Shown in pieces: positions 3,578 through 63,488 of a stretch of DNA of 64,000 nt (its first letter is position 1; each line of letters starts with the position of its first letter). The stretch spans positions 1 to 64,000 of the forward strand of contig CAVYNY010000019.1 of the NCBI GenBank assembly GCA_963769935.1, in the 5' to 3' direction. A model generated the notes under the pieces. The model did not search any database and was not told the origin of the DNA. It was given only the letters and a program-made list of their open reading frames with translations. This DNA is from an uncultured delta proteobacterium. Its GTDB lineage: Bacteria; Desulfobacterota; Desulfobacteria; Desulfobacterales; JAFDCJ01. The position numbers were made by a program, and so were the translations under genes.

Positions 3578-3786
3578 CAGAGACCAGAAGCCAGTGGACA
3601 GAGAACAGAGGATGGATGACGGGACGGAGGACGGATGACGGATGACAGATTTGATTGAAGACGGCTTCCAGATGCCGGCAGCACGCAACCAGCTTTTTCC
3701 CCTTTATCCTTTTACCTTTATCCTTTTACCTTTATCCTTTTAACCTCCAACCTTATCCCTTAAACCTCAGACTTAAGCCTTGAACC
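3578..3786. repeat. Two degenerate heptamer arrays (CAGAGGA/CGGATGA-type, then CCTTTAT/CCTTTTA-type)
   Basis: cagagac cagaagc cagtgga cagagaa cagagga...; cctttat cctttta cctttat cctttta cctttat cctttta. Confidence 0.85.
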
Positions 3787-3932
3787 GTCTACCCGGTACC
3801 ATCCACCCCACAAACGACGCTTTCCATCTTCCGTCTTTGTCCTTGACATACCAGTCGACAAAATCTATTTTGCGGCCTGTTCGAGCCGCGCTGCAGTCCA
3901 GCTCGCAAACCTTGAGAGGCAGCTATTAACGC

Positions 3933-4820
3933 ATGAGCATTTACCGCAACTGGTTTCTCGCCAGCCGCCCCTGGTCGTTTGCCATGACGGCCATATCCGT
4001 CAGTGTCGGCAGTGCCCTGGGGGCCATTGATGGAGATTTTTCCTGGGTCTACTATCTGATTACTCTGGTAGGAACCGTTTTGCTGCATGCCGCCACTAAT
4101 TTGATCAACGACTATTACGATGTAAAAAGCGGTGTCGACACCCAGGAAGTTTCCACGGCGCAGTACCGTCCGCACCCGCTGGTCGAGGGAAAACTGAACG
4201 CGGAACAAGTGCGAATCGCAGCAACCATCCTCTACGGATTATCCACCTGCATCGGCATCTATCTGGCGGCCGCCCGGGGCTGGGCTTTAGTGTGGATTGG
4301 TTTAATTGGCGCATTTGCCAGTTTAACCTATACCGCTCCGCCGCTTAAATACAAATACAGCGCGCTGGGAGAAATTTCGGTTTTTTTTATGTGGGGCCCG
4401 CTGATGGTGGCAGGTGCTTATTTTGTCCAACGTCAAACGTTCAGTATAGATGCCTTCTGGATTTCCCTTCCTTTCGGAGCCCTGGTGGCCTTGGTGCTGC
4501 TGGCCAACAACATACGCGACATCAGCCATGATCGTGACAAAGGTATTTTAACTCTGGCCATTGTTCTGGGACAACGCAACGGTCTCTGGCTGTATTTTAT
4601 CCTGGTCGTATCAGCATATCTGGGAATCGTTCTGATGTCGGTTTTTGGCCCACTGTATCTGTGGTCGCTGATTGTTCTGCTGTCGATGCCGCTGGCTTGG
4701 CGTCTGCTGCGCCAGATGATGAAGCAGGTACCGGCGGATGCCGACGCCCGCACCGCTCAGCTGGACACCGCCTTCGGCGTGCTGCTGGTAATATCTCTGG
4801 TACTGGAGGGTGTATTTTGA
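3933..4820 (+). CDS. menA: 1,4-dihydroxy-2-naphthoate polyprenyltransferase
   Basis: ASRP, NLINDYYDVKSGVD, ANNIRD..HD...G..TLA UbiA-family motifs; multi-TM. Confidence 0.88.
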   Translation: MSIYRNWFLASRPWSFAMTAISVSVGSALGAIDGDFSWVYYLITLVGTVLLHAATNLINDYYDVKSGVDTQEVSTAQYRPHPLVEGKLNAEQVRIAATILYGLSTCIGIYLAAARGWALVWIGLIGAFASLTYTAPPLKYKYSALGEISVFFMWGPLMVAGAYFVQRQTFSIDAFWISLPFGALVALVLLANNIRDISHDRDKGILTLAIVLGQRNGLWLYFILVVSAYLGIVLMSVFGPLYLWSLIVLLSMPLAWRLLRQMMKQVPADADARTAQLDTAFGVLLVISLVLEGVF

Positions 4821-5444
4821 ATCGCAGCGAGTTCCGTCCGATCGCCCTGGTTGCAACGGTGGTGCTGGCAGCCTTTCTATGGTTCGTCACTTTCTATCTC
4901 ACCTGGGCCACTTTTTGGATAAAAATTTCGTTTTCAGCAGCCATCCTGGCCATTTTGTCCCTTCGGCTGCAGCCCAACCGGACAGAAAACCTAAAATTCA
5001 ACGCCGCGGCTGTTGCGCTTGGGACTGCTCTCCGCGGCGGCCCTGTATCTGATCTTCTGGGCCGGCAACGCGGCTGCAACCTTACTGCTGTCTTTTGCCG
5101 GTCAGCAGGTCGAGGGCGTTTATGATAAAGGGGCCGGTACGCCGATGTGGGTAATCGCGCTGCTGCTCTTTTTTATAACCGGACCCGCCGAAGAATTGTA
5201 CTGGCGCGGCTATTTGCAGAAAAATTTAATGGCCCGCTTCGGCCAGTGGCAGGGCTGGCTTCTGGCAACCGTCATCTATGCCGGTGTGCACATCTGGTCT
5301 TTTAATTTTATGCTTATCGGAGCAGCCTTTGTGGCGGGAGGTTTCTGGGGGGCCATGTACTGGCGCTTTAAAAACCTGGCACCGGTTATCATTTCCCATT
5401 CAATTTGGAGTACGGTGATTTTTGCAGTGTTTCCAATCAGCTGA
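4817..5444 (+). CDS. CPBP (Abi/CAAX-type) intramembrane glutamic endopeptidase, apparent frameshift near 5015
   Basis: PAEELYWRGYLQ, YAGVH, IISHSIW motifs; TTG start overlaps menA stop. Confidence 0.8.
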
Positions 5445-5445
5445 C

Positions 5446-5501
5446 CGGTTTGGATGGTTTTGATCATTTGGTTCGTTTGGATCGTTTAGATCTAAACGAT
5501 C
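5446..5501. repeat. Nonamer array (GATCGTTTG-type) between convergent genes
   Basis: gatggtttt gatcatttg gttcgtttg gatcgttta gatc followed by inverted taaacgatc. Confidence 0.7.
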
Positions 5502-7312: not shown

Positions 7313-8113
7313 ATGGTGCAAACGAATACATATCTTTTCAGAAAAATTCGCGGGTGCCGGGCCCTGATTCCGATTGCCCTGATAGTGATGATGATCCCCT
7401 GGGGCTGCGCCGGCACGGCCGACTTATCGCGGGACGAATTTGAGGCACCGCCGGCCGCATAGCTCCCTCCCATGCGGTACACCATTCAGGTCGGGGCCTT
7501 TTCAAATATGGACAATGCCGTGCGGCTGACCGCAAAACTCCAGGCGCAGGGCTTAAACGCCTACCATTTTCTCCATGATTCGGGGCTCTATAAAGTACGC
7601 TTCGGCAACTATCCGACAAAAAAAGCCGCTCTAAAAAGGGCCGAATAACTGAGCGGCGGACGGCATCATTGATGTGTACTACATTGTCGGCCCGAAGGAT
7701 TACACTGCGTCAGCCTATCGGCCGGGCAATCGGGATTATCTCAGAAACGAAATTGTCACAACCGCCCAAAAGTATATCGGAATTCCCTACCAATGGGGCG
7801 GCGCGTCGCCCCACACCGGCTTTGACTGCAGCGGTTTGACCATGGTGGTTTACCGGTTGAACGGCCTGCAGCTGCCGCGTTCGTCGGGAAGCCCAGTGGC
7901 AAGCCGGAAGACCGATCGACCACAGCCAACTGCAAAAGGGCGATCTGATTTTTTTCGCCACGTCCGGCGGCCAAAGGGTGTCGCACGTGGGTATTTATGT
8001 CGGGGACAACGAATTTCTGCATGCTCCGGGCAAAAACCGCAAAATCAGGATCTCGTCTTTATCGAGCTGAATATTATCGATCCCGCTATCTCGGCGCCAG
8101 AAGATATGTGTGA
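7313..8113 (+). CDS. Lipoprotein with SPOR domain and NlpC/P60 peptidase, several apparent frameshifts
   Basis: WGC lipobox-like site, YTIQVGAF (SPOR), IGIPYQWGG..GFDCSGL, GDLIFF, SHVGIY, FLHAP. Confidence 0.8.
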
Positions 8114-8398
8114 GCGTTTAGTTCGTTAAGATCGTTGAGATCGTTAGGAGCGTTCGTGTGAATGGAAAATAAGAAGCGCAGAAGAGCAGGAAAGCTCTGT
8201 TTTATTCATGATTAGCACGACATTGTGAGGCTTTTATCTGCCATTTCAAATTTCTGCTCTTCTGATCTTCTTAGCTTCTTAACTTCATTCTTCTTTGGTT
8301 TGCGATCAACGATCCAAACCATCCAAACTATAACCGAATCTATTCATCATATCCCAATCAACTAATCAACCAGTCAACATCAACCACAACTAGTCAAT
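8112..8398. repeat. Nested inverted tandem arrays: nonamer A, octamer B, B', A', then octamer C (AATCAAC-type)
   Basis: GATCGTTGA-type 8112-8156; GAAGAGCA-type 8165-8196; TTCTGCTC-type 8252-8286; TCAACGATC-type 8306-8332; CAATCAAC-type 8355-8398. Confidence 0.85.
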
Positions 8399-9790: not shown

Positions 9791-9799
9791 ATAAAAGAC

Positions 9800-10564: not shown

Positions 10565-10762
10565 GTGTCTAAAATGTGTGCAATCTGCGGCAAAAAACCT
10601 ATGGTGGGCAGCCATGTCAGTCATGCTCACAATGTCACCAAACGCCGATTCAACCCGAATTTGCAGCGTGTGCGCGCAATTTCAAACGGCAGAGTCAAAA
10701 AAATGGATGTCTGCGCCAACTGCATCAAATCCGGGCACGTGGTTAAGGCGCCCTGGGAATGA
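10565..10762 (+). CDS. rpmB: 50S ribosomal protein L28 (CxxC..CxxC zinc form)
   Basis: [29 protein letters not shown]. Confidence 0.97.
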
Positions 10763-10858
10763 AGATTGAAGATTGAATAATTAAGGTATGCTTTCTAATT
10801 TAAAAAAGATAGAATTCCATAAATATTCAATCTTCAATCTTCAATATTCAATATTCAT
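10758..10858. repeat. Inverted heptamer-arm element, family D (GAAGATT/AATCTTC), copy 1
   Basis: gaagatt gaagatt gaataat taaggtat ... aatattc aatcttc aatcttc aatattc aatattc. Confidence 0.85.
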
Positions 10859-18187: not shown

Positions 18188-18307
18188 ATTGAATATTTTC
18201 GATTGAAGATTGAATATTTAAGGATCGCCTTCAGCGCATCAATTTCAACTAAGACGAAGCGAAGCGACATCCATCAATCTTCAATTTGCAATCTGCAATT
18301 TTCAATT
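18188..18307. repeat. Inverted heptamer-arm element, family D, copy 2
   Basis: attgaat attttcg attgaag attgaat atttaagg ... agcgaagcga catccat caatctt caatttg caatctg caatttt caat. Confidence 0.85.
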
Positions 18308-28566: not shown

Positions 28567-29082
28567 GAGTAATCTCCTATCTATTCAATATAATTATTAT
28601 TATTATAATTTAAGTACTTGATTTAAAAGGTGCGGTTCTAGTAATTTAAATTTGCTTGAATGTCAAGCATTTTCATACCATCATTAAAATTTGTTTGCTT
28701 GAGATCGATGAATTTCTGTGTTATGAAGGTCTTCCGGCAACTTTTAAATTTTATTTTATAACCGATTAATATCATTTGTCAAATTTAATTAAACCATAAA
28801 TTGATTGAATTTGATAATTCCAATAAGTGCGGGAGTTTATCAGGAACACAAACGGCTCAGCCATAGGGGGCAAGCCGGTGCGACAACCTGCTTTTACTAA
28901 CAATTTACTCAGACAATACAATCACAGTAAACCGAATTTATTATAATTGCTTTTAATATCAGTTTGTTGTAAATAACTTCCGGAGTTAAATGAGCTTTTT
29001 TCGCCTATTGAAGTAAGTAAAGAATCCTGGCCCACTGGACCAGGTTTTCAATGTTGGAATAAAAATAATAAAGGTATACGTC

Positions 29083-30492: not shown

Positions 30493-30574
30493 AGATAAGA
30501 AGAGCAGAAGCACGGAAGAGCAGAGGCTGAAAAAATTAAGAAGAGCAGAAGAGCAGAAGATCAGAAAGCAGGAA
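30491..30574. repeat. Left octamer arm (GAAGAGCA-type, about 10 units)
   Basis: gaagataa gaagagca gaagcacg gaagagca gaggctga ... gaagagca gaagagca gaagatca; begins inside the gltX stop codon. Confidence 0.9.
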
Positions 30575-30617: not shown

Positions 30618-31001
30618 TTGACTAAAAGAAGGGATATCAAGCACTTCCGTGATCTTGAGGTATACCGGCGGGCATTTAAGGCGGCAATGACGATATTTCA
30701 GGTGACGAAAACCTTTCCGCCCGAGGAAAGATATTCCTTGGTGGATCAAATAAGAAGGGCCTCTCGCTCTGTTTGCTCCAACCTTACCGAAGCCTGGCGA
30801 AAACGGCAATATATCGCCGTATTTAAAAACAAAATCACAGATTCAATGCAGGAGGCTTCAGAGACTCAATGCTGGCTGGAGTTCAGTCTTGCCTGCGGAT
30901 ATATAGAACCGGCTGTCTTTGAAAATCTCGATAATGAATACGAGGAAATCATTGCCATGCTGTCTTCAATGGAAAATAAAGCCGAAAAGTTCTGTTTTTG
31001 A
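30618..31001 (+). CDS. Four-helix-bundle protein (23S rRNA IVP / TIGR02436-like)
   Basis: FRDLEVY, FPPEERYSLVDQIRRASRSVCSNLTEAW, EASETQCWLEF...CGYI; GGGAGG RBS before TTG. Confidence 0.92.
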   Translation: MTKRRDIKHFRDLEVYRRAFKAAMTIFQVTKTFPPEERYSLVDQIRRASRSVCSNLTEAWRKRQYIAVFKNKITDSMQEASETQCWLEFSLACGYIEPAVFENLDNEYEEIIAMLSSMENKAEKFCF

Positions 31002-31049: not shown

Positions 31050-31134
31050 TTCTGATCTTCCTATCTTCTTAGCCGTCTGATTTTCTTATATTTTTGACCA
31101 TCGGATCTTCTGAGCTTCTTAACTTCCGATCTTC
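31050..31134. repeat. Right octamer arm (TTCTGATC-type, about 10 units), reverse-complement family of 30491-30574
   Basis: ttctgatc ttcctatc ttcttagc ... ttctgagc ttcttaac ttccgatc ttc. Confidence 0.9.
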
Positions 31135-31198
31135 TTTCTTAATATATTTTCCTTGACGCCGGGCTAAATATTATGTAAAAAGCACGTTTACAAAATGC

Positions 31199-31272
31199 TG
31201 AGGGATCGTCTAGTGGCAGGACGACGGGTTCTGGCCCCGTTAACCTAGGTTCGAATCCTAGTCCCTCAGCCA
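31199..31272 (+). tRNA. tRNA-Gln (anticodon CTG)
   Basis: Acceptor TGAGGGA/TCCCTCA, anticodon stem ACGGG-TTCTGGC-CCCGT, T arm CTAGG-TTCGAAT-CCTAG, encoded CCA. Confidence 0.96.
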
Positions 31273-35664: not shown

Positions 35665-35826
35665 AATAATTAGAGAATCCTGTCCCAGGGCCCAGCCAAC
35701 GGCGGGGTAGGACTTCACTTCGGAGGGATGGTTTCTGTCGTCAGATAATTCATGGAATATTTATACGAAGCAGCCAATCATCTCTGACCTGGCTCAAATG
35801 CCCAGGTTTTCAATGTTTGGAATAAC

Positions 35827-41527: not shown

Positions 41528-41615
41528 CTATGCTCTATGCGAATATGTTCCGCCTTCCCCCTTCCGAACTCCATCCTCTGTCATCAGTTCTCTGTCTTCC
41601 GCCATCTGGCTCCTG
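41528..41615. repeat. Stacked degenerate heptamer arrays after the hypB stop
   Basis: ctatgct ctatgcg; ttccgcc ttcccc ttccgaa; tcctctg tcatcag ttctctg tcttccg ccatctg. Confidence 0.65.
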
Positions 41616-42410
41616 TCATGTGTCTTCCGTCTTCTGCTTTACCTTCCCCTTAAGCCACTCCAGCCAAGGCTCCAATCCTTCCTCAGTTTTTGCGGACATC
41701 TCAAAAATCGGCATATCAGGGTGAACCTGGTGGATGAAGTCGATAGCCTTTTGCTTGTCGTAGTCCAGATAAGGCAGCAGATCAATCTTATTGAGTAAAG
41801 CAACTTCACATTCCCGGAACATGAGCGGGTATTTTACGGGCTTGTCTTCACCCTCCGTCACGCTCAATACCACCACGCGGGTGTCTTCACCGATATCGAA
41901 CTCAGCCGGACAGACCAGGTTGCCGACATTTTCTACGATTAATAGATCGAGATCATCCAATTCCAGGCTCACGGCGGCCTTTTCAATCACGTGGGCGACA
42001 AGGTGGCAATCGCCGCCGAATTCGTCCGTATTGATCTGCACCACGGGTGCACCGCTTAGGGCCAGCCGGTCGGCATCATTGGTGGTGCAGATGTCGCCGA
42101 CGATCACCGCCGCTTTTATCTCCGGCATAATGCGGGCCAGCGTCTTTTCCAGGGTGGTGGTCTTGCCGGAACCCGGAGAACTCATGACGTTGATGACAAA
42201 TACGCCCTTATCCGCAAACAGCCGGCGGTTTTCGGCCGCCATCTTATCATTGACGTCAAGAACACGACGAACCACCTTGATTTCCCGAGTTCCGCTCTTT
42301 TGGGTGGTGACGCCGGAATCACCGTCACGGGCATGGGAATGCGGATGTTGGTGATGGGAATCCGTATGGTGAAAGTATTTTGGGGTTTTAAATAACCTGT
42401 CAAGAAACAT
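41616..42410 (-). CDS. hypB: Nickel-incorporation GTPase HypB with His-rich N-terminus
   Basis: SSPGSGKTT, CH, ENVGNLVCPA, EGEDKP.KYP, NKIDL. Confidence 0.94.
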   Translation of the reverse strand: MFLDRLFKTPKYFHHTDSHHQHPHSHARDGDSGVTTQKSGTREIKVVRRVLDVNDKMAAENRRLFADKGVFVINVMSSPGSGKTTTLEKTLARIMPEIKAAVIVGDICTTNDADRLALSGAPVVQINTDEFGGDCHLVAHVIEKAAVSLELDDLDLLIVENVGNLVCPAEFDIGEDTRVVVLSVTEGEDKPVKYPLMFRECEVALLNKIDLLPYLDYDKQKAIDFIHQVHPDMPIFEMSAKTEEGLEPWLEWLKGKVKQKTEDT

Positions 42411-43694: not shown

Positions 43695-43792
43695 TTGGCT
43701 TTCAGCTTTAAGCTTTCCCGCCTCCAACCTCTATCCTCTAACCTCCAACCTCAAGCCGGCCGCCCTCTGCGCTTTGCGCCCCGCTCTGTCCT
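43695..43792. repeat. Stacked heptamer arrays after the sucC stop
   Basis: gctttca gctttaa gctttcc; cctccaa cctctat cctctaa cctccaa cctcaag; ctctgcg ctttgcg. Confidence 0.75.
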
Positions 43793-44957: not shown

Positions 44958-45285
44958 GGTTCGTTTTGTCCGTGTTGGTTCGTTAAGATGGTTGAGTTCG
45001 TCCCAGTGAAATTCGCTTCGCTCGTCCCTTTCGGAAATTTCACGGGATAAATCCCCATGAAATCCGCTTCGCTGATACTACGTATATTTCACGGGATAAA
45101 TTTGGATCGTTGGCTTTAGGCCTTGAGCTTTTCCGCTTCCTGCCTCAAACCGGACGCTTTCCGCCCTTTGCGCTCAGTTTTAGTCTTTCAGCTTCCTGAT
45201 CTTCTGCTCTTCTCATCTTCTGCGCTTCTTATTTCAAGGCCTCCAACCTTTAGCCTTTTACCTAATACCTTGCGCCTTCGGCCTT
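44958..45285. repeat. Composite repeat spacer: nonamer array with two inserted hairpin units, then octamer and heptamer arrays
   Basis: gttcgttaa gatggttga; 2x CCC..TGAAAT.CGCTTCGCT...ATTTCACGGGATAAAT; ttctgctc ttctcatc ttctgcgc; cctccaa cctttag cctttta. Confidence 0.85.
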
Positions 45286-47298
45286 CTACCCAATCACGGC
45301 CAGCACATCACCTTTGGCCACCGAATCGCCGCTGCTGTAGTTGATGGCCTGAATGGTGCCGCTGGTGGGAGCCGGCAGGGCATTTTCCATTTTCATGGCT
45401 TCCAGGATAAGGACCGTATCGCCTTCTGCAACTGAATCGCCGACATTTTTCTGATAGCTGACGATCATGCCGGGCATCGGCGCTTTAAGCGGTGTGCCGT
45501 TTACAGCGGCAGGCGCTTGCGGCGCAGCGGCAGCAGGCGCGCCTTTTTTAGGTGACGCCGGCGGGGCTGCGGCCGGAGCAGCCGGCGCGGCGGCAGGCCG
45601 GGCATAAACCGGCGGTGTCATGCCGGACCGCGGCTGCATGTAGTCAACCACCGGAGCGCCGTCGACGGAGTCCACCCCGACCTCGAAATAATCCCCATCG
45701 ACGAACACATTATAGGTGCGCAGATTTTCACTCCTGGCAGGCGGTTCCTTCTCTGGTTTTTCAACAAGTTTGCCGGCCTTGGCCTTTTTAATAAGTTCCT
45801 GCTCGGCTTTTACATCCTCCAGTGTTCGCGGTCTGACCTCGGCGGGCGGTTGTTCCTTGCCGTATTTCCAATTCAAAAACCGTTTGCCCGGTTACCGGAT
45901 ACAGAGCATAGATCAGCACATCGTCCAGGTCGACGGCCAAGCCTTGCGTTTCTTCCCTGGCTTTTTCCAGTTCCGGCTCCAGGACCTCGGCCGGTCGACA
46001 GGTAATCGGCTCGTCCCTCTCTCATAACCCTTGAGGGCTTTTTTCTGAACTTCGGAATTGATGGGCACGGCGGTTTTGCCGTAAAGCCCGTAGCACAGAT
46101 CTTTGACCTGGGCCGTAATCATCTTGTAGCGTTCATTCTCATCATCAAACAGAACATTGTTGACGGTCTGGATCCCGACGATCTGGCTGGTGGGAGTTAC
46201 CAGCGGAACCTGTCCCAAATCCTTTCGAACCCGCGGCAATTCCGCATAAACCTGGTCGATTTTGTCAAGCGCATCCATTTCTCTGAGTTGATTGACCAGA
46301 TTGGACAACATGCCGCCCGGGGTCTGGTGCAGCAGAACATTGATATCAATGATCGACATCTTGGTGTCGTCCAGAAGATGCCTGTATTTGGGCAGAATTT
46401 CCTTTTCAAGAACTTCATTGATTTTTGCCAGATGTTTGATGTCAAAACCGGTGTCCCGGTTGGTGCCGAGCAGGGTCATGACCAGCGGTTCGATGGCCGG
46501 ATGAGAAGTACGATACGCGTAAGGCGACATGACGGTGTCAATGATATCAACCCCCGCTTCAATGGCCTTGAGCTGGGACATCGAGGACATACCCGATGTA
46601 AAATGGCTGTGCAGATTAATCGGCGGTTTGACGGCGTCTTTCATGGCCTTGATGACGGCATAGGCGTCATAGGGGGCAATCAGCCCGGCCATATCTTTCA
46701 GGCAGATGCTGTCCGCGCCCATGGCTTCCAATTCTTTAGCTTTACCGACATAATAGTCGATGTTGTAAACCTCGCCGCCCATTCGCGGCTCGGTCATGGT
46801 ATAGCAAATGGATCCTTGGAAGTGTTTGCCGCTGGCCTTGATTACCGGCACCACGGTTTCGAAATTGCGGTAATCATTCAAGGCATCAAAGGTCCTGAAA
46901 ATGTCAATGCCGTTGGCGGCCGCCCGTTCCACGAAGGCCCGGGCAACATCGTCGGCATAGTTCCGGTATCCCACCAGGTTCTGAGCTCTCAGCAGCATGG
47001 AAAAAGGGGTCTTTTTGATATATCGTTTCAGCGTCCGGATTCTTTCCCAGGGATCCTCATTTAAAAAGCGGTGCATGGTATCAAAAGTGGCGCCGCCCCA
47101 GACTTCCATGGCCCAGAAGCCGACATCATCCATCATTTCGGCCACGGGAATCATGTCTTCAGTGCGCCCGCGGGTTGCGAACAATGACTGGTGACCGTCC
47201 CGCAGGGATAAATCCTCTATTTTGACTGGATTTTCCGCTGCCGGCCGATCTTTGCCATAATTCATGGCTGTCATTTTAACTGCAATATCTTCGCTCAT
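45286..47298 (-). CDS. Pyruvate/oxaloacetate carboxyltransferase fused to a biotin carrier (PycB / transcarboxylase 5S+1.3S-like); two compensating apparent indels near 46015 and 45890
   Basis: LRDGHQSL, EVWGGATFD, EDPWER, KDMAG, PGGMLSNL, LVTPTSQIVG; C-terminal EAMKMEN; both ORF pieces are in the same frame. Confidence 0.9.
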
Positions 47299-47567: not shown

Positions 47568-47689
47568 GAATGGAATATATTCTATTGAAATTTATATATT
47601 GAATGAATTCTATCGATTTTAAAAATTATTAAACGCCTGAGCGAAGCGATTTCCACAAATTTTCAATATTCAATCGTCAATATTCAATT
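47568..47689. repeat. Inverted heptamer-arm element, family D, copy 3
   Basis: attgaaa tttatat attgaat ... gagcgaagcga tttccac aaatttt caatatt caatcgt caatatt caat. Confidence 0.8.
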
Positions 47690-49244
47690 ACATGGGTATA
47701 TTGCCATGCTTTTTCGGAGGCCTGGTTTCGCGTTTGGAGCACAGGGCCTCCAGCGCATCGATCAATCGCGGCCGGGTTTCACTGGGTACGATCACGGCAT
47801 CGATATAACCTCTTTGAGCTGCCTGGTAAGGATTGGAAAAAAGCGTTTCATATTCTTTGATTTTTTCCCGGCGTTTGGCATCCGGATTTTCGGCCCCTTG
47901 AATCTCTTTGCGATGGATGACATTGGCAGCGCCAGCCGCTCCCATGACCGCAATTTCAGCCGTCGGCCAGGCAAACGCCATATCCGCACCCAGGTCCTTG
48001 GAGCACATGGCCAGATAGGATCCGCCATAGTCTTTGCGGGTTACGAGCAGCAATTTGGGTACGGTGGCCTCGGAATAACACCATAGTAGCTTGGCGCCGT
48101 GACGGATAATTCCGCCCCATTCCTGCTGGCTCCCGGGCAGGTAGCCGGGGACATCGGCAATGGTTAAAAGCGGAATATTAAAGGAATCACAGAATCGGAT
48201 GAACCGGGTGGCCTTGTCCGAAGCGTTGATGTCCAGACAACCCGCCAGCACCTTGGGTTGGTTGGCAATAATGCCGATGGCTCTGCCGTTCAGTCTGGCA
48301 AAACCGACGATTATATTGCCGGCAAAGTATTGGTGCGGTTCAAAAAAATCACCGTTGTCAACGATGGACAGAATCACCGCTTTCATATCGTAGATTTTGC
48401 TGGGGCTGTCGGGTATAATTGTATTCAAGGTCGCATCGGTCCGCCGGCGGTCATCGCCGGTTTCAACATAGGGCGCATCTTCCATGTTGTTGGAAGGCAG
48501 ATAGGAAAGCAGCCGCTTTATCCGGCTGATCGCATCTTCATCACTCTCGCAGGCGAAATGGGCCACGCCGCTTTTTTCGTTGTGGGTTTTGGCGCCGCCC
48601 AGCTCTTCAAAAGAAATTTCCTCACCGGTAACCGCTTTGATCACTTCGGGTCCGGTAATGAACATGTAACTGCTGTTTTTCACCATGAACACCCAGTCCG
48701 TCATGGCCGGCGAGTACACGGCACCGCCGGCGGTAGGTCCCATGATGGCCGAAATCTGCGGGATCACGCCCGAGGCGGCTGAATTGCGGAAAAATATCTG
48801 CCCGTAGCCGGAAAGCGCATCCACCCCTTCCTGAATTCGGGCACCACCCGAATCATTGATTCCTACAAACGGCACCCCGGCCTTGAGGGCCAGATCCATA
48901 ACCTTGCAGATCTTTTTGGAGTGCATTTCACCAAGACTGCCGGCTCTGGCGGTAAAATCCTGGGAAAAGGCAAATACCGTTCGCCCATCCACCAGGCCGT
49001 GGCCGGTGATCACGCCGTCAGCCGGTATATCCACGTTTTGCATATCGAAATTAACGCAGCGGTGGCTCACGAACATGTCGAGTTCGCGGAATGTGCCCTT
49101 ATCGAACAGCAGATTCAGGCGCTCACGGGCTGTCAACTTACCCTTTTCACGCTGGGCGGCGACCGCTTTCTCGCCACCCATTTCAAGCAGCTTTGCTTCC
49201 CGGGCTTTTAAATCACGAATTTTATCTTCCACGACTCCCATCAT
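47688..49244 (-). CDS. Acyl-CoA carboxyltransferase subunit (PccB/MmdA/transcarboxylase 12S-like)
   Basis: GKLTARER, DSGGARIQEG, AGGAVYSPA, DVPGYLPG, AVMGA.GA, KKHGNIP. Confidence 0.93.
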   Translation of the reverse strand: MMGVVEDKIRDLKAREAKLLEMGGEKAVAAQREKGKLTARERLNLLFDKGTFRELDMFVSHRCVNFDMQNVDIPADGVITGHGLVDGRTVFAFSQDFTARAGSLGEMHSKKICKVMDLALKAGVPFVGINDSGGARIQEGVDALSGYGQIFFRNSAASGVIPQISAIMGPTAGGAVYSPAMTDWVFMVKNSSYMFITGPEVIKAVTGEEISFEELGGAKTHNEKSGVAHFACESDEDAISRIKRLLSYLPSNNMEDAPYVETGDDRRRTDATLNTIIPDSPSKIYDMKAVILSIVDNGDFFEPHQYFAGNIIVGFARLNGRAIGIIANQPKVLAGCLDINASDKATRFIRFCDSFNIPLLTIADVPGYLPGSQQEWGGIIRHGAKLLWCYSEATVPKLLLVTRKDYGGSYLAMCSKDLGADMAFAWPTAEIAVMGAAGAANVIHRKEIQGAENPDAKRREKIKEYETLFSNPYQAAQRGYIDAVIVPSETRPRLIDALEALCSKRETRPPKKHGNIPM

Positions 49245-49395: not shown

Positions 49396-50388
49396 CTATA
49401 CAAGTAATTGATTGTCAAGGAAAAAAAGCAGCTCTTCGGCGGCGAGGGTGGGGGCGGTAATACCTTTTTCAACCGCCCGGGTCAGCCTCGGCAGATGCTT
49501 TTTTACCTCGGGATTTTGTTTGAAACGGTTTCTAAGTCCTTCTTCGATCAGAGACCACATCCAGTCCAGAGCCTGCCGGCGCCTCTTAAGTTCCAGTTCA
49601 CCCGTATCCGCAAGCTTCTTGCGATGAATCAAAACGGACTGCCAGATTTCTCTGACGCCGGCCTGCTCCACCGCACTGCAGGTCAGCACCGGTGGAATCC
49701 AGGTCGGCGACGCATGCCGTAAAAAATGCAGTGCATTTTGATAGATTCCGGCTGCTTTTTTCGCCTTGGCCACGTTATCGCCGTCGGCTTTGGTGATGGC
49801 GATGGCATCGGCCAGTTCAAGAATCCCTTTCTTGATTCCCTGAAGCTCATCACCGGCGCCGGCCAGCATCAGCACCAGAAAAAAATCAACCATGGAAGCC
49901 ACTGTGCTCTCCGATTGACCGACCCCGACCGTTTCTACAATGATGACATCGTAACCGGCGGCTTCACAGATAAGCATGGTCTCGCGGGTTTTGCGGGCCA
50001 CTCCCCCCAGGGCGCCGGCCGAAGGGGACGGGCGAATAAAGGCATTGTTTTCAGCCGCAAGTTTTTCCATGCGGGTCTTATCGGCCATGACACTGCCGCC
50101 GCTGCGATTGCTGCTGGGATCAACGGCAAGGACCGCAACGCGGTGGTTATCTTGAACAAGGGACATGCCCAGGCTTTCAATAAACGTACTTTTGCCGACC
50201 CCGGGGACACCCGTAATGCCGAGTCGGACAGCCTTTCCCGTATGGGGCAGCAGGGAATCAATGATTTTGCGCGCCAGGTCCTGATGGGCAGGCAGCGAAC
50301 TTTCGATTCTGGTGATGGTTTTAGAAACCATCCGGCGTTCCCGGTCAAGCACGCCGTCGATGTAGGCCTGAGGATCCAAAGAATTCAT
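49396..50388 (-). CDS. meaB: Methylmalonyl-CoA mutase-associated GTPase
   Basis: GITGVPGVGKST, VDPSS..SGGS..ADKTRM, ETVGVGQSE, GDELQGIKKG. Confidence 0.96.
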   Translation of the reverse strand: MNSLDPQAYIDGVLDRERRMVSKTITRIESSLPAHQDLARKIIDSLLPHTGKAVRLGITGVPGVGKSTFIESLGMSLVQDNHRVAVLAVDPSSNRSGGSVMADKTRMEKLAAENNAFIRPSPSAGALGGVARKTRETMLICEAAGYDVIIVETVGVGQSESTVASMVDFFLVLMLAGAGDELQGIKKGILELADAIAITKADGDNVAKAKKAAGIYQNALHFLRHASPTWIPPVLTCSAVEQAGVREIWQSVLIHRKKLADTGELELKRRRQALDWMWSLIEEGLRNRFKQNPEVKKHLPRLTRAVEKGITAPTLAAEELLFFLDNQLLV

Positions 50389-50440: not shown

Positions 50441-50684
50441 CAAATCAAAATCACAAATCCCAATTAACAAATCTCAAACAAATTACAATCACCAAAATAC
50501 AAAATTCAAAACGGAAGTTAATCTGTCTTGATGATCGCTTCAGACAAATACGCAATCCTTCATCACGAAAGCACGAAAGTTCAAAACACGAAAAAATAAA
50601 ACAGATAGATTTTCTTGGTTTGGCCGGTTTCGGTCATTGGCTATTGTGATTTGGGATTTATTTGTTATTTGGTGCTTGGAATTT
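50441..50684. repeat. Inverted heptamer-arm element (CAAATCC/GGATTTG-type) with an inner CACGAAA array
   Basis: Left caaatcc caattaa caaatct caaacaaat...aaac; right gttt...gatttgg gatttat ttgttat ttggtgc ttggaat. Confidence 0.8.
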
Positions 50685-50751
50685 AGACCTTACCGGCTGC
50701 ACGCTGCTATTCGTTTTCGGCCTCCTGAGATTTGACATGACAACCGCCAGA

Positions 50752-50803
50752 TTTTCAGATGTCAGCACTGCCGCTGACACCTGAAACCCGACACCTGACA
50801 CCT
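50752..50803. repeat. CTGACAC-type heptamer array with a short inverted arm
   Basis: ttcagatgtcagc...g ctgacac ctgaaac ccgacac ctgacac. Confidence 0.7.
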
Positions 50804-50833
50804 CTTACGACATGCAACAGCCGAACCGGTCAA

Positions 50834-52975
50834 CTATACAGCAAGTGCCAGCGACTTCTCCAAGGCATTCAGCACCTGATTGGCCGATTCCGTCACCGCT
50901 GTACCGGGACCGAATACACCGGCGGCTCCTGACTGGTACAAAAAATCATAATCAACCGGCGGAATGATCCCCCCGACGACCACCAGGATGTCCTGCCCGC
51001 CCTCGGTTTTCAGAGCTTCGATCAATTGAGGCACCAGCGTTTTATGGGCTGCGACCTGACTGGAAACACCCACCACATGCACATCGTTTTCCACTGCCAT
51101 GCGGGCAACCTCGGCCGGCGTTTGAAACATAGGACTGATATCCACGTCAAACCCGAGGTCGGCAAATCCCGTGGCAATCACCTTTATTCCGCGGTCATGG
51201 CCGTCCTGGCCCATCTTGGTTACAAGTATCCTGGGGCGCCGCCCCTCTTTTTCCTGGAATTGTTCAGTTCGCTTGAGCACGGCTTCAATGATTTCATTTT
51301 TCCCGTACTCGGCGGCATATACCCCGGAAATACACTGGGTGGTGGCCACATAGCGTCCGAACTCCTTTTCCAGGGCGTCGGATATTTCGCCGACCGTCGC
51401 CCGCAGCCGGACCGCAGCGATGCTTAGTTCCAGCAGGTTGGCACCGGACACGGCACCTTTGGTCAGGTCATCCAGTGCTTTTTGCACGGCGGCATTGTCG
51501 CGGGTTTTCTTCAACTCCTTAAGCCTTGCGATCTGCTCATCACGCACGCTGGCCGGGACTTCCAGTATTTCCAGATTGACATCTTCTTCAATCTGATACT
51601 TGTTAACTCCCACAATAACGTCTTTGCCTTGATCAATCCGCGCCTGCCTGCGGGCCGCCGATTCCTCGATGCGCATCTTCGGCATGCCGGTCCCGATTGC
51701 CTTGGCCATGCCGCCCATCTCTTCCACCTCTTCGATAATCTTGCTTGCCTCCCGTATGATGCCGTCGGTCAGGGACTCAAGATAATATGATCCCGCCAGA
51801 GGGTCCACCACATGACAGATCTGAGATTCTTCCTGAACGATGAGCTGGGTATTTCTGGCAATTCTGGCGGAAAAATCCGTTGGCAATCCCACGGCTTCGT
51901 CAAAAGAATTGGTGTGCAGGGACTGGGTTCCACCCAGCGCAGCCGACAGGCACTCCAGCGTGGTTCGGATAATATTGTTGTAGGGATCCTGCGCCGCCAG
52001 GCTCCAGCCGGATGTCTGGCAATGGGTGCGCAACATGGTCGAACGCGGGTTTTTGGGGTTAAAGCGGCTGATGATGCGGTGCCACAAAAAGCGCGCCGCC
52101 CTCAGCATGGCAATTTCCATGAAAAAATTCATCCCGATGCCAAAAAAGAACGAAAGCCGCGGCGCAAAATCATCGATATCCAGTCCGGCATTCAGAGCCG
52201 CCCGCACATATTCTAAACCGTCGGCCATGGTAAAGGCGGTTTGCAGCACGGAATCGGCCCCGGCTTCCATCATATGATAACCGCTGATGCTGATGGTGTT
52301 GTATTTGGGCATATGTTTCGAGCAGTAGCCGATAATGTCCGAGACGATCCGCATGGAGGGTTCCGGCGGATAGATATAGGTATTGCGCGTCAGAAATTCC
52401 TTTAAAATATCGTTCTGAATGGTACCGCTCAGTTTTTCCCGGCTGACGCCCTGTTCTTCGGCGGCCACGATATAGCCTGCCAGAATCGGCAGCACGGCAC
52501 CGTTCATGGTCATGGAAACCGTCATCTGGTCCAACGGGATCTGATCGAAAAGGATTTTCATATCTTCAACGGAATCCACCGCAACCCCGGCTTTGCCGAT
52601 ATCCCCGACAACTCTAGGATGGTCGGAGTCATATCCCCGGTGGGTAGCCAGATCAAAAGCCACCGAAAGCCCCTTCTGGCCGGCCGCCAGGCATCTTCTG
52701 TAAAAGGCGTTGGATTCTTTGGCAGTTGAAAAGCCGGCATACTGGCGAATCGTCCAGGGGCGGCCGGCATACATGGTGGCATTGGGTCCCCGCACGTAGG
52801 GTGCCATTCCCGGCAGGGTGTTGACATGCGCCGTTCCTTCAAGGTCCTCCTTCGTATACAACGGCTTGACGGTAATTCCTTCCGGGGTGTGCCAGTTTAA
52901 CGACTCGACAGGCTTTCCTCTCATCTCCTTGGTTGCTTGACTGATCCATTTTTCAATATCAGGACGCTCGGACAT
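50834..52975 (-). CDS. scpA: Methylmalonyl-CoA mutase (B12-dependent)
   Basis: [46 protein letters not shown]. Confidence 0.96.
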
Positions 52976-53099: not shown

Positions 53100-53201
53100 A
53101 CTCAACCCGTAACTTGCAACTCGTAACCTAAGACTCGCACCGCGCAACGCGCATCTCGTAAGCCGAAACCCGTGACTCGTAACCCGCAACGCGCACCCCG
53201 T
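53100..53201. repeat. Heptamer array (CTCGTAA/CGCGCAA-type) abutting the mce stop
   Basis: cccgtaa cttgcaa ctcgtaa cctaaga ctcgcac cgcgcaa cgcgcat ctcgtaa ... Confidence 0.8.
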
Positions 53202-53645: not shown

Positions 53646-53779
53646 TTTCTGATCTGCTTAACTTCTGCTCTTCTTATTTGTAAGCCTCCAACCTTTATCC
53701 TTTAACCTTTCACCTTTCACCTAACACCTTCTGCCTTGCGCCGTGCGCCATGCCCTTTGCCCTCTGCCCTATGCGCCTG
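53646..53779. repeat. Stacked octamer plus heptamer arrays abutting the Nfu-gene stop
   Basis: ttctgatc tgcttaac ttctgctc ttcttatt; cctccaa cctttat cctttaa cctttca cctttca; ccttgcg ccgtgcg ccatgcc ctttgcc ctctgcc ctatgcg. Confidence 0.85.
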
Positions 53780-54019: not shown

Positions 54020-54100
54020 CCGGTTTCGTGCGTTGTGATCGTTGAGCTCGTTAAGATGGTTTAGATCGTTTAAAGGTTCAGGGTTATAGATTCTGGACTC
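54020..54100. repeat. Nonamer array (GATCGTTGA-type) plus short GGTTCAG heptamers
   Basis: gtgcgttgt gatcgttga gctcgttaa gatggttta gatcgttta. Confidence 0.75.
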
Positions 54101-61244: not shown

Positions 61245-61256
61245 TTCCGCCAAAAT

Positions 61257-61640
61257 TCATCGCAGGCCGAGGAGACCGCGCTGCCCCAGTTGTTTGATGA
61301 AACTAGTCACGGAAACCTCGGCTTCCCTGTTTTCCAAACGATGAGTTTCGGCAAAAATCCGGACAATCCGGCGCACGGATCGATTCCCATCCACCAAATC
61401 CCATACGGCGGTTCCCATAGCATCCAACTGAAGCTTTTTGGTATGAACTCGATCCGTTGGGCCTCCCAGACGCTTGGCCAGAGCAGCAATCCACGGCCTT
61501 GCCGTCAGCGGATATTCTAAGAGCACCTCCCCGTTCTCAAGCCGTGTTTCAGCAATATGAAGGCTTTTGGCCGGTCGGCATTCAAGCGCATGGCTGCGCG
61601 ATAGCTGACTTTTTCGATGCTTGCTTTTAAAGACTTTCAT
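61257..61640 (-). CDS. PqqD-family (RiPP recognition element-like) protein
   Basis: LQLDAMGTAVWDLVDGNRSV..I......EAEVSVTSFIKQL.QRGLL winged-helix pattern. Confidence 0.82.
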   Translation of the reverse strand: MKVFKSKHRKSQLSRSHALECRPAKSLHIAETRLENGEVLLEYPLTARPWIAALAKRLGGPTDRVHTKKLQLDAMGTAVWDLVDGNRSVRRIVRIFAETHRLENREAEVSVTSFIKQLGQRGLLGLR

Positions 61641-62583
61641 AATCGGTGCAGATCTGATTCAACAGTTGGAAATCAAGCGCGCGTTTGCTTTCGGCCCGAA
61701 CACCGAGCAGCCGGTTTTTATCGTTCAGATGCCACAGTCGATACCAAAAAAAAGACGGCTTTACTTTCAGCCGGCGGATGGCTCGCCGCCAGTCGTCGGG
61801 GGGCGACACCTGCCATTCTACTGCGGCGTATCCGTCAATCGTCGACCCTTGCGGCTGGCCGGCGGAAAAATCAGGGATCGTTCCGCAAAACCAGACGAGG
61901 TCCCGCCCGCCCAGCAAAGCGGCTGCCGGTGCCCAGCGGTAAAACCGGACGCTTTGCCGACCATCGGAAAATAAAAGTTCATATTTGCCGGTTTCGAACC
62001 GGTAGTGCAACAACCCGAATGGAGCGGGCAGTTTGAGCCGGAGGTCGAAAACTTCCCAGCGTATCATGCCGTCCGAGCTGTGGTCGCGGAAAGATTTGAG
62101 CACCGCCAGCAATACCTTTTCGCGTTCCGGTGAACTATCCCCCGTAAATTGAATCAGGGTTGCATTGCGGCATACAGGGCAAAACAGGATGGCTCCGCGC
62201 CCCCCTGCATTCTGGCTTTGCCACAGAAAACCGCTGGCCTCATAATCCGCCAGAGCCTTTTGCCAGGGCGGCGGCAGAAACCATTCAGCAATGCGGCCTC
62301 TGATGTTGCCGGATTGTGAAGCAGAGAGCCGCTTCAGGTGGGCTCTGTGGGAAAAAGTCCCTTTCACAGATCCCCACTTAACTTCCAGCACGGGTCCGGC
62401 TTCATCCTCCAGTATCAGATGCCGGGTGCCGATCCGGCCGATCTCCCATAGCGGCGGGGTCTTAAACCGGATTCCGTTCCAGGCGACGTGTCTCCAATGG
62501 TTGGTCAAATCGTTAACTTCTGACTTTAGACGCTTAAACAACAGGTTGTCAGATGATTTTGAACTAAAGCTACCGCGGCACAT
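61627..62583 (-). CDS. Hypothetical protein (start uncertain)
   Basis: Long ORF overlapping both neighbours in the same operon; Trp-rich; no family recognised. Confidence 0.7.
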   Translation of the reverse strand: MCRGSFSSKSSDNLLFKRLKSEVNDLTNHWRHVAWNGIRFKTPPLWEIGRIGTRHLILEDEAGPVLEVKWGSVKGTFSHRAHLKRLSASQSGNIRGRIAEWFLPPPWQKALADYEASGFLWQSQNAGGRGAILFCPVCRNATLIQFTGDSSPEREKVLLAVLKSFRDHSSDGMIRWEVFDLRLKLPAPFGLLHYRFETGKYELLFSDGRQSVRFYRWAPAAALLGGRDLVWFCGTIPDFSAGQPQGSTIDGYAAVEWQVSPPDDWRRAIRRLKVKPSFFWYRLWHLNDKNRLLGVRAESKRALDFQLLNQICTDYESL

Positions 62584-63193
62584 AAAGGTTCCAGCCGGTC
62601 AACTCCGTCGTCATCGTTTTAGAATCCTGCTGGCGGAGTTTGTCTAGTTTATCCAGCCCCTTGACTTCGTAGCAGTGTTGATCCTCCTCAATCAGGCTGG
62701 TCATGGTGAGCTTGATGGCATTGCCCAGTTTTTCCTCCGTATCCATTGAGTTGTGCTGCAGGGTCATACTGATTCGGCTGCCGTCCTTGTCGACAAAAGA
62801 CCATTTCCAGCTGATCAGAATATGAAAAGGATCACCGCGATACTCATCCGGCTCACCGTATTTCGCCTTAATCTTCGCAAAAAGTTTTTTATAAAAATCT
62901 TCGCTCGAATCGTCATACTTGAGCTTGATCCTGACGATATGACCCGGCGCCGTGCAGGTGGCATAAGCAATCAATCCGGTTTTAATGCCTTCAAGCGGCC
63001 TTGTCTCCACTTCTTCAATGTTTTCCATATACCGGGTGGGCAAAGCGGTTTCCATGATGACATAGTCTTTGATATCTTCGATTCCGCCGTTTAATTTAAA
63101 AACCGCAATCTGATGCGGCGCATCGGCGGCCGGACAAACATTGGCAATCCATAACAGTGCTGCGCTGGCTGCTAAGACAAGTATCCGTTTCAT
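62570..63193 (-). CDS. Secreted hypothetical protein
   Basis: Signal peptide MKRILVLAASAALLWIANVCPA; GGAG RBS. Confidence 0.75.
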   Translation of the reverse strand: MKRILVLAASAALLWIANVCPAADAPHQIAVFKLNGGIEDIKDYVIMETALPTRYMENIEEVETRPLEGIKTGLIAYATCTAPGHIVRIKLKYDDSSEDFYKKLFAKIKAKYGEPDEYRGDPFHILISWKWSFVDKDGSRISMTLQHNSMDTEEKLGNAIKLTMTSLIEEDQHCYEVKGLDKLDKLRQQDSKTMTTELTGWNLYVPR

Positions 63194-63211
63194 ACGGGGC
63201 TCCGATCTGAT

Positions 63212-63488
63212 ATTGACGAATGACGAATGTCGATTGACGAATTAAGGTATCCAATCAATTTAAATTTATTATAGTATAGGCAGACTACCAGGATGAAGCA
63301 AGCCTTATGAGCGACTATTTACAAACGATCTGCCGGCGGGGAATCTGATCTATACTTACATAAATTAAAAACCAGGATTTTCATATCCGTGAACCCTGAA
63401 CCTCTGATCCTCTAAACTCTAAACTCTGAACCCTGAACTTTGAACCTTGAACCCTCATTCTTCATTGGTCAATCTTCATTCGTCATTC
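63212..63488. repeat. Family D element, copy 4, with an inner CCCTGAA heptamer array
   Basis: attgacg aatgacg aatgtcg attgacg aattaaggtat ... gaaccct gaacctct ... gaacctt gaaccct cattctt cattggt caatctt cattcgt cattc. Confidence 0.8.

Follow-up and report, generated by a model that had tools for sequence, protein, structure and literature searches.

The spacers of an uncultured bacterium of the Desulfobacterales contain many tandem arrays of degenerate 7-, 8-, and 9-base units, described here from the first 64 kb of contig 19 of its assembly (the window, i.e., the whole stretch of 64,000 nucleotides). We read these arrays, with a probability of about one half, as the arms of hairpin elements located behind stop codons. 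In its complete form, such an element would carry a gene of the PF05635 family in its loop, and the gene-less hairpins would likely be decayed or dependent copies. The anatomy of the elements, the polarity and complementarity of their arms, the link with the gene, the presence and absence states among relatives, and a change by one unit are direct observations.

The assembly comprises 7.99 Mb in 41 contigs, with about 51% G+C. Genes were predicted with our own caller, based on open reading frames (ORFs) and codon scores, which gave 6679 models covering 79% of the genome. This caller is crude: stop positions are reliable, start codons less so. Arrays were detected with Tandem Repeats Finder (TRF), one row of its output being one reported repeat, and the chance level was taken from three dinucleotide-preserving shuffles of the same spacers. 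Comparisons with public sequencing runs used assembled contigs only, including contigs of RNA libraries; no weight was given to stretches of the window that these contigs leave uncovered or to the habitat labels of runs with small shares.

A complete element is found behind gltX. A G-rich octamer arm made of AGAAGAGC units (30498-30571) begins 5 nt behind the gltX stop, a complementary C-rich arm of the GATCTTCT / CTTCTGAA type lies at 31054-31136, and a tRNA gene follows at 31199-31269. Listing the genes located between paired arms, as the original prediction had proposed, revealed at 30618-31001, on the plus strand, a gene for a four-helix-bundle protein of the PF05635/TIGR02436 family (95.7 bits with TIGR02436; E 1.1e-30 with PF05635). 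The genome holds seven matches to PF05635, of which six are intact, and all six intact copies (6/6) are framed by a G-rich array and its C-rich complement, the 7-, 8-, or 9-base unit differing from copy to copy. The six proteins are 26-51% identical or not alignable, and the packaging of the gene between arrays is therefore old or recurrent.

The arms of these loci were scored by local alignment of the left flank with the reverse complement of the right flank. This score replaced RNAduplex on 200-nt flanks, which did not separate cargo loci (-89) from controls (-79). The six loci reach 37-54, as compared with a median of 16, a 95th percentile of 21, and a 99th percentile of 24 for 299 other small genes. 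Among relatives of the same genus and order, 25 of the 27 usable loci are above the control 95th percentile, and 20 have TRF arrays on either side. The phylum was sampled with 29 usable loci, one per genome, of which 24/29 score above 24 vs. 0/55 windows shifted by 1 kb; arrays occur on both sides in 23/29 and on one side in 5/29. When the genome, its relatives, and the phylum sample are taken together, 55 of 62 PF05635 loci are array-armed. In the genome designated G097, the PF05635 locus is array-framed although the 40-kb sample of that genome held one array only. The other genes bracketed by a G-rich and then a C-rich array are ordinary ones (rhodanese, LysM, MeaB).

Genes of this family have been described in another setting. 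In Coxiella burnetii, RNase III excises a 23S rRNA intervening sequence that carries an ORF of the family (Warrier et al., 2016, PMC4990558). The likeness with the present element resides in the PF05635 ("S23p") gene placed in the loop of a long stem formed by inverted flanks (PMC4990558), and the two features of such intervening sequences, a PF05635 ORF and inverted flanks capable of forming a stem, are both found here. The differences are that the present element lies between protein and tRNA genes, the window copy being located between gltX and a tRNA gene and not in a 23S rRNA helix, that its stem is made of tandem 7-9-mers, and that cutting by RNase III is considered by analogy. ORF-bearing 23S rRNA intervening sequences were reportedly also described in Leptospira by Ralph and McClelland in 1993. 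Finally, genes named 23S_rRNA_IVP were observed wedged within cas operons, with a possible Cas-associated function (Zhang and Ye, 2014, PMC3936711). They are members of the same family lying between unrelated operon genes, and the passages of that article devoted to them do not mention flanking repeats (PMC3936711). A literature search on the names of the PF05635 family returned texts whose relevant parts neither link arrays with the gene nor describe flanking repeats.

The arrays themselves are much more numerous than the genes. In the window, TRF reports 59 rows, mostly with periods of 7, 8, or 9 bases or doubles of these, and with 65-100% matches, in agreement with the degeneracy noted in the original prediction. 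About 20 array-bearing spacers had been announced; 19 of the 35 spacers of at least 100 nt hold an array, 18 of these being outside the high-GC, presumably foreign start of the window. The unit families that had been named are present (GAAGATT/AATATTC, CAGAGGA, CCTTTTA, CTGACAC, CTCGTAA/CGCAACG, CAAATCA, and CCCTGAA-type), as are the longer units AGAAGAGC, CCAATCAA, and GATCGTTGA. Genome-wide, the periodicity scan at 7, 8, and 9 bases that had been suggested gave a strong excess over shuffles. Indeed, among 5920 TRF rows there is a sharp peak at period 7 (1553), followed by periods 8 (873) and 9 (868). Real spacers contain 1240, 685, and 397 arrays of periods 7, 8, and 9, vs. 38-56, 38-57, and 36-61 in shuffled spacers (means of about 45, 49, and 45), which corresponds to excesses of 27-, 14-, and 9-fold. 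The intergenic share is 85% for period 7, 81% for period 8, 47% for period 9, and 20-23% for periods 6 and 12, intergenic DNA making up 21% of the genome. Array cover amounts to 5.7% in intergenic DNA and to 0.75% in coding DNA. Once rotations and strands are collapsed, 312 distinct heptamer units are counted, the commonest being AATATTC (112 arrays), AAGATTG (81), ACACCTG (56), and AAAATTG (54).

Heptamer tandem repeats with a few named unit sequences are also known in filamentous cyanobacteria as short tandemly repeated repetitive (STRR) sequences; the lineage studied here belongs to the Desulfobacterales. As repeats, the arrays are of a known kind, the long simple sequence repeats, since they combine an excess over chance, a non-coding location, and a predominance of heptamers. 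Long simple sequence repeats have units of 5-11 nt, heptamers being the commonest (Mrazek, Guo and Shah, 2007, via PMC4679880). They share with the present arrays a head-to-tail arrangement of short units, a non-coding location, and a sporadic distribution among lineages, and slippage has been proposed as their origin (PMC4679880). In contrast, their description, as relayed in that article, includes no arm polarity, complementary pairing, or cargo gene (PMC4679880). A search for literature on heptamer or tandem repeats together with Desulfonema or Desulfosarcina found nothing on these taxa.

The placement of the arrays relative to stop codons is not random. At most 3 nt from the stop-side edge of the spacer, 12.9% of arrays are found vs. 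2.3% for random placement in the same spacer (5.6-fold), and at most 10 nt from this edge, 19.0% vs. 6.2%. At the start-side edge, the corresponding values are 3.6% vs. 2.0% (at most 3 nt) and 6.7% vs. 5.5% (at most 10 nt). At the final base of the stop codon, array cover stands at 3.9%; it reaches 13% at +12 to +30, falls to 9% at +45 to +60, and climbs again to 12% at +75 to +105, for a background of 7.5-8%, and it is depleted over the 20 nt upstream of starts. Among 4558 well-scored genes, 274 have their stop under an array or at most 3 nt from one. Ten stops of the window had been named as overlapping or abutting arrays, and for eight of them this is borne out, the array being at most 5 nt away or over the stop: NlpC, rpmB (-3), gltX (+5), hypB (-14), mmdA (-1), mce (+1), nfu (+5), and the gene at 63489 (0). 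At the threshold of TRF, no array abuts the two others, namely sucC (+40) and the gene with its end at 45286 (+56). The NlpC frame ends at 8129 and not at 8113 as first given; the array covers both positions.

The arrays also have a polarity. Within 60 nt behind a stop, their sense strand is poor in C (13% C, 28% G), and individual families stand behind stops almost always in the same orientation (48:3, 31:4, 22:0, 17:1, and 15:0). When spacers are followed from left to right on the plus strand, array DNA shifts in GC skew from about +0.4 to about -0.4. This gradient is seen in tandem spacers of both directions and in convergent spacers and is weaker in divergent ones, the skew of non-array DNA being about 0. 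The share of spacer DNA occupied by arrays is 6.5% in tandem and convergent spacers and 3.1% in divergent spacers. In spacers with a single array, 129 G-type vs. 45 C-type arrays are near a stop, and 76 C-type vs. 47 G-type arrays are near a start. The order G-rich then C-rich applies to both strands and does not depend on how the flanking genes are oriented.

A comparable rule is already published. GGGAATC in Xanthomonas and GGGGAYT in Nostoc are intergenic tandem heptamers, of which each genome has 70-75 convergent pairs (Rehm et al., 2015, PMC4692102); they overlap stop codons, are rare between divergent genes, and are mostly transcribed (PMC4692102). As here, the G-rich strand serves as sense strand behind stops and as antisense strand before ORFs, and convergent pairs are formed (PMC4692102). 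However, one G-tract family per genome is considered there, as a quadruplex former, whereas 312 heptamer types plus octamers and nonamers are found here, the commonest of which, judging from the unit sequences, have no GGG run. The account given of the Xanthomonas and Nostoc repeats mentions no cargo gene (PMC4692102). In marine Beggiatoaceae, TAACTGA repeats in forward orientation create stops in all frames (MacGregor, 2015, PMC4679880), and it is because of these stops that forward repeats overlap gene ends only (PMC4679880). These repeats are also intergenic heptamers but, as described there, they consist of a single unit in 2-6 copies, mostly upstream of starts, with one inverted set (PMC4679880).

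Such a rule could arise in another way than through hairpin elements. The arrays might simply be long simple sequence repeats made by slippage, with selection filtering the survivors: behind stops, a C-poor strand rich in stop triplets would be tolerated and, before starts, a G-poor strand without start codons or Shine-Dalgarno-like words. Inverted pairs would then result from template switching, and PF05635 genes would persist or land in hairpins. The dominance of heptamers, as in long simple sequence repeats of other bacteria (PMC4679880), the 312 distinct heptamer units, and the fact that one G-rich heptamer obeys the same rule in Xanthomonas and Nostoc (PMC4692102) are in line with this explanation, which we consider possible, if somewhat doubtful. 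It does not account for the 55 of 62 PF05635 genes located between complementary arrays, nor for the array-framed locus of G097 with its single array in a 40-kb sample. Moreover, the arms of the cargo genes contradict the rule, the G-rich arm standing before the start and the C-rich arm behind the stop. At the cargo gene, it is the pair rather than the gene end that sets the pattern of the arms.

Inverted pairing exceeds chance, as had been expected. Neighboring arrays with equal unit length and units at most one base apart (gaps of 5-400 nt) are inverted in 194 cases and direct in 37. Among 995 adjacent array blocks sharing a spacer, 323 are in the order G-rich then C-rich vs. 74 in the reverse order. 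The arms of the former are complementary, with a median duplex energy of -17.6 kcal/mol vs. -9.65 kcal/mol when partners are permuted within their class; -20 kcal/mol is reached by 43% of the pairs vs. 12% of the permuted ones. The median arm measures 31 nt and the median gap 69 nt. Whole elements have a median folding z-score of -2.8 (61% below -2), to be compared with -0.34 (13% below -2) for array-free spacer DNA. The element behind rpmB (10760-10857), between convergent genes, illustrates this anatomy. Its first unit holds the rpmB stop TGA, and a TGAAGAT arm, a 44-nt loop, and an AATCTTC/AATATTC arm follow one another to form a 25-bp stem that starts at the stop codon (minimum free energy, MFE, -33.1 vs. 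-15.0 for shuffles; z -5.82). The loop contains a core resembling the right core of the dispersed family 1 described below.

These hairpins are not intrinsic terminators, because they have no U-tract: a T-run of at least 4 within 12 nt behind the C-rich arm is found in 10.5% of cases vs. 8.5% of control 12-mers, which is no excess, and this candidate was ruled out. Integron attC sites and CRISPR arrays were also dropped as candidates, as the units are contiguous and not interspaced and the elements lie in housekeeping operons.

The paired form has precedents too. In Geobacter metallireducens, families of 3-5 tandem 8-, 9-, and 7-mers were described (Aklujkar et al., 2009, PMC2700814), with 24, 21, and 8 opposite-strand pairs at variable distances, between and after genes (PMC2700814). 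The arrays studied here are likewise tandem 7-9-mers paired on opposite strands at variable distances. The multi-family paired form is therefore similar, with tens of pairs there and hundreds here (PMC2700814). The Geobacter pairs were interpreted, untested, as sites for integration host factor (IHF)/HU or for regulators, and the passages that present them state no link with stop codons or with PF05635 (PMC2700814). The idea that the paired multi-family form had never been described thus has to be toned down, since these pairs (PMC2700814) and the convergent heptamer pairs of Xanthomonas (PMC4692102) were already reported. It is the gene-array link for which no published precedent was found; the positional rule and the paired form are already published.

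Part of the elements are dispersed in several copies. Among 271 loops of at least 30 nt, 88 resemble another loop and 79 have at least two copies in the genome. In family 1, the left core occurs 52 times (1-2 for shuffled motifs) and the right core 158 times (7-39 for shuffled motifs). The 20 complete copies have arms of the GAANATT type, of the GAATGAC type or, in a further copy, of the AAAATGCCT type; as read by eye from the listing, the two arms are matched to each other in 16/20 and heterologous in 4/20. Several dispersed copies share an identical order of variant units, which points to the copying of whole elements. Slippage leaves these identical higher-order unit orders unexplained. Family 3 is about 230 nt long, with a conserved core and TGGAATAN octamer arms, and has 23 copies (e.g., G000:C11:345480-345780, G000 being the present genome); this TGGAATAN-armed element may correspond to a small RNA not yet named or to a miniature mobile element. 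At gathering thresholds, Rfam recognized only tRNA in the window, and five dispersed-core loci gave no match at E values up to 0.1.

Dispersed families with conserved cores, such as the 52 left cores vs. 1-2 in shuffles and the 23 copies of family 3, call to mind short elements moved in trans by a transposase, either doublets of repetitive extragenic palindromic (REP) sequences (REPINs) or MITEs (miniature transposable elements with inverted repeats), with a REP-associated tyrosine transposase (RAYT) or an IS200-IS605 Y1 enzyme. The genome has 11 Y1 transposase matches, and the extragenic position behind genes resembles that of REP elements. However, an array is found in only 4 of the 22 flanks of the Y1 genes, and these flanks have 0-11 other copies, none being high-copy. 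The RAYT link was consequently rejected, the flanks being neither array-framed nor high-copy. In addition, no target-site duplication was recognized, and the arms are not constant among copies, in contrast to the terminal inverted repeats on whose recognition a transposase depends. Mobilization of this type appears very improbable.

Two observations concern repeats outside the arrays. A GC-rich dispersed repeat of about 130 nt is often located between arrays (e.g., C11:294644-294776 and C16:61989-62120); it ends with an AT-rich word on one side and, at the opposite end, with a perfect GC hairpin CCCAGCCGCCGGCC...GGCCGGCGGCTGGG. Furthermore, 708 of 3916 (18%) random array-free intergenic 35-mers have a similar copy among the other sampled pieces, so that dispersed repeats are, in general, unusually abundant in the spacers of this genome.

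Orthologous spacers differ between species, and the spacers are thus not invariant among close relatives. The operon from mce to hypB is syntenic in seven members of the genus and in one genome of another family, and its spacers are not conserved. The mce-mcm spacer is array-free and 41-42 nt long in two genomes and measures 189-337 nt, with related or unrelated units, in others; three relatives have a sucC-sucD spacer of 17-36 nt devoid of TRF arrays, and in others this spacer measures 126-355 nt. Behind mmdA, the family-1 core is recognizable in several species, with different arms and arrays. The array-empty versions of these three spacers (sucC-sucD, mce-mcm, and mmdA-next gene) in sister species are 17-46 nt long. 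In a genome of another family (G019; locus L008, G019:C1:639300-653300), the mce-mcm spacer has 1053 nt and seemingly an extra gene, and a PF05635 gene lies just upstream (G019:C1:639190-639510).

The spacer between gltX and the tRNA gene was compared in 16 members of the genus and has no TRF array in six. It is bare, with 59-71 nt, in G007 and G004, has 101 nt in G015 and 157-179 nt in G013 and G006, and in G011, counted as array-free, it keeps an arm remnant unscored by TRF. Five members of the genus have a gene-less hairpin. The cargo gene of the present genome has AGAAGRKS-type arms, and the gene is truncated in G014; remnants of this arm lineage alone are left in G018, in G011, and probably in G009. 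G008 carries a different cargo gene, of an unrelated lineage (29% identity), with AGTTAAATAG-type arms, a unit family also common to the gene-less hairpins of G012 and G151. The lineage of the arms and that of the gene go together at this site, a coupling that slippage leaves unexplained. At a second site, behind an mcm-like gene, G004, G006, G008, and G018 have a PF05635 gene and the present genome (G000, contig C36) has CAATCCG-type arms only. At about 70720-70820 of the same contig, a CAATCCG array lies inside the long frame of a hydantoinase/oxoprolinase-like gene, upstream of its N-terminal motif, which is conserved; either the protein has an N-terminal extension that includes the translated array or the start was called too early.

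Changes are also seen between strains. In contigs other than those of runs X1 and X2, discussed below, the cargo gene has internal deletions (126 and 268 nt). A strain of about 97% identity, represented in RNA libraries, keeps the flanking genes, but 66 different letters stand in place of the array-bearing 76 nt behind mmdA and 112 in place of 59 nt behind hypB; it also has one 7-nt insertion. Around mmdA, array bases amount to 20.8 per kb in 27 loci with at least 86% protein identity, 9.5 in 35 loci with 80-85%, and 4.7 in 18 loci below 80%.

These presence and absence states bear on the possibility that the arrays are regulatory or structural devices of the host, such as REP-like stabilizers of mRNA, insulators against Rho or read-through, or tandem sites for a nucleoid protein or a global regulator. 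Arrays do stand behind stops and inside operons (sucC-sucD, mmdA-next gene). The RNA that first emerges behind the stop is C-poor, and Rho prefers C-rich RNA. A contig from an RNA library spans the spacer between mmdA and the next gene, which is a weak hint at co-transcription, DNA carry-over being possible. The paired tandem sites of Geobacter metallireducens were themselves interpreted as regulator sites (PMC2700814). On the other hand, sister species with the same operons have these spacers empty (17-46 nt), which would make a host function dispensable; binding specificities would have to number in the hundreds, like the unit families; and there is neither a U-tract nor a folding advantage of the sense strand. 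A host device is thus an unlikely explanation for the arrays.

Several results weigh against the reading of the arrays as arms of hairpin elements. Most loops are single-copy (192/271), and array flanks are repeated elsewhere in 929/3916 cases (24%), not far from the 708/3916 (18%) of control spacer pieces. No transposase partner was found for the elements, and no target-site duplication was recognized at the gltX site, where empty and filled spacers are too diverged. A tblastn search with 59 proteins of the family against the genome gave only the seven known places, the gene-less hairpins being without remnant; this is unsurprising given the median loop of 69 nt, yet it leaves most arrays as putative descendants only. 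The density of arrays of periods 7 and 8 has a median of 5.0 per 100 kb in 10 genomes without the gene vs. 21.25 in 10 genomes with 6-9 copies, a marginal difference (p 0.053) obtained from 14-40 kb sampled per genome, and three many-copy genomes are array-poor; we do not lean on this correlation, the sample being too small. Single arrays, which have no partner, obey the positional rule as well. At orthologous places, arrays drift between related units, and DNA runs X1 and X2 have one extra 8-nt unit in the left arm (30498-30571), behind 30546. RNA pairing energy shows no strand bias, the sense strand being more stable in 76 and the antisense strand in 74 of 151 pairs. Wobble pairing (G-U) thus provides no hint that the transcript is under selection, and RNA-level selection via G-U pairs was rejected. 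The orientation of the family-1 core relative to genes shows no preference (20 vs. 17), and a tie with transcription was rejected as well. Finally, some pairs of the window fold no better than shuffles (z -0.59 and -0.21). Slippage accommodates many of these points, namely the rule followed by single arrays, the unit-sized indels, the drift between related units, the lack of strand bias in folding or core orientation, and the uniqueness of most loops and flanks.

The original prediction took the arrays for ends or scars of small cassettes. This holds for some of them, as evidenced by the arm pairs of PF05635 genes, the states of the gltX-tRNA spacer, the gene-less arms at a site where four relatives carry the gene, and the dispersed multi-copy elements with conserved cores. 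For the other arrays, it would apply by extension only, and the 192/271 single-copy loops, the 24% vs. 18% of repeated flanks, and the lack of gene remnants, target-site duplication, and transposase count against it.

If the arrays are the arms of hairpin elements, they would grow and shrink by slippage, and the two arms could be kept complementary by template switching, i.e., arm-to-arm copying, within the hairpin. By analogy with the rRNA intervening sequence of the same gene family, the element may act in RNA, its stem being cut by RNase III; a stem of about 30 bp would then be cut out of the host transcript or would cap it. Gene-less copies would descend from gene-bearing ones, or one and the same mechanism would make both. 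More broadly, we put forward as a tentative proposal that STRR and long simple sequence repeats could be the arms and debris of one widespread PF05635 cassette, whose protein, a relative of Avd, would help to make or spread the arms, and which RNase III would excise from rRNA or mRNA.

Arrays of this type amount to about 5.7% of the non-coding DNA of the genome, and repeats of this sort have been on record for decades in cyanobacteria, Xanthomonas, Geobacter, and Beggiatoa, with no agreement on where they come from or what they do. Their tie to one gene family, at 55 of 62 loci and phylum-wide, provides an experimental handle consisting of one protein, one stem, and one cassette. There are also practical consequences. 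The arrays break short-read assemblies, and contigs of the likely source sample do end at arrays. They supply or overlap the stops of 274 of 4558 genes and, when devoid of stop triplets, they can be read as protein. For these reasons, gene calling is affected in metagenome-assembled genomes of this widespread sediment group.

The genes of the window are mostly housekeeping ones (gltX, relA/spoT, hypB, sucCD, menA), and a methylmalonyl-CoA mutase/epimerase/carboxyltransferase cluster is also present. Between them, the other arrays are distributed as follows. A G-rich heptamer array of the GGACRGA type (3596-3650) lies 28 nt behind the stop of gene 3047-3568. Its heterologous partner is a C-rich CCTTTWA array at 3695-3786, in which TRF finds a 14-mer three times at 100% and then a 20-mer period; this pair (3590-3725) has a z of -0.59, no better than shuffles. 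In a convergent spacer, the nonamer array GTTTGGATC (5448-5492) begins 4 nt behind the stop of 5013-5444. Behind the NlpC/P60 gene, two pairs are nested. The outer G-rich arm is a GATCGTTGA nonamer array (8112-8154) over the end of the frame, with its partner at 8308-8328; the inner inverted pair (8166-8286) has GAAGAGCAG-type and CTGCTCTTC-type arms (TRF rows 8252-8286). C-rich TRF arrays occupy 8308-8397, with AACCATCCA units complementary to 8112-8154 and CCAATCAA octamers. The region 8105-8335 folds with an MFE of -64.7 vs. -51.5 kcal/mol for shuffles (z -3.31). At 18201-18307, also in a convergent spacer, an inverted pair GATTGAA / CAATCTG-CAATTTG encloses a loop with a reversed family-1 left core (z -2.12).

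In the second half of the window, heptamer arrays at 41548-41629 lie over and behind the hypB stop and are G-rich on the sense (minus) strand. The sucC-sucD spacer contains GCTTTAA and CCTCCAA arrays (GAGGTTGG on the sense strand; 43698-43752), 40 nt behind the sucC stop, and an octamer array CTGCTCTT (45196-45229) is located 56 nt behind the stop of a biotin-carrier gene. The family-1 element at 47600-47688, on the minus strand, has a TTGAATA arm starting from the mmdA stop, the conserved core, and a decayed right arm; this decayed element (47600-47692) folds no better than shuffles (z -0.21). Heptamer arrays CAAATCA / CAAAATA (50441-50511) stand upstream of gene 49396-50388, and a CTGACAC array (GTGTCAG on the sense strand; 50774-50803) is found 30 nt behind the methylmalonyl-CoA mutase stop. 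A CGCAACG / CTCGTAA array (53143-53200) abuts the mce stop (+1), AACCTTT and ATGCCCT arrays (53690-53774) follow the stop of a NifU-like gene (+5), and the nonamer array CGTTGAGAT (54031-54070) belongs to the same family as 8112-8154. Toward the end of the window, TRF reports a heptamer array TGACGAA (63214-63242), and TGAACCTC-type and TCATTCG arrays (63385-63488) end exactly at the stop of a gene with a reverse frame from 63489.

The beginning of the window is of another nature. Positions 1-2430 have 74% G+C vs. about 51% elsewhere and contain only broken transposase frames (integrase core, IS30-type helix-turn-helix). This segment is either a foreign insertion sequence or the chimeric contig end of a metagenome-assembled genome (contamination estimate 5.4%). 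Elsewhere in the window, summed contig depth jumps 10-20-fold at 28988-29081 and 50514-50947 in 4/4 runs, with many loose contig ends at 29015-29066 and 50562-50684; the two segments are therefore dispersed repeats common to many genomes or places. A similar word, CAGGTTTTCAATGTT(T)GGAATAA, occurs at 29030-29065 and 35790-35826. Octamer arms CACGAAAG/CTTTCGTG are present at 50564-50579 and in about 10 places genome-wide, forming inverted pairs whose gap is almost constant at 15-32 nt (e.g., C1:67342-67419 and C10:443538-443613), and look like one compact high-copy hairpin family.

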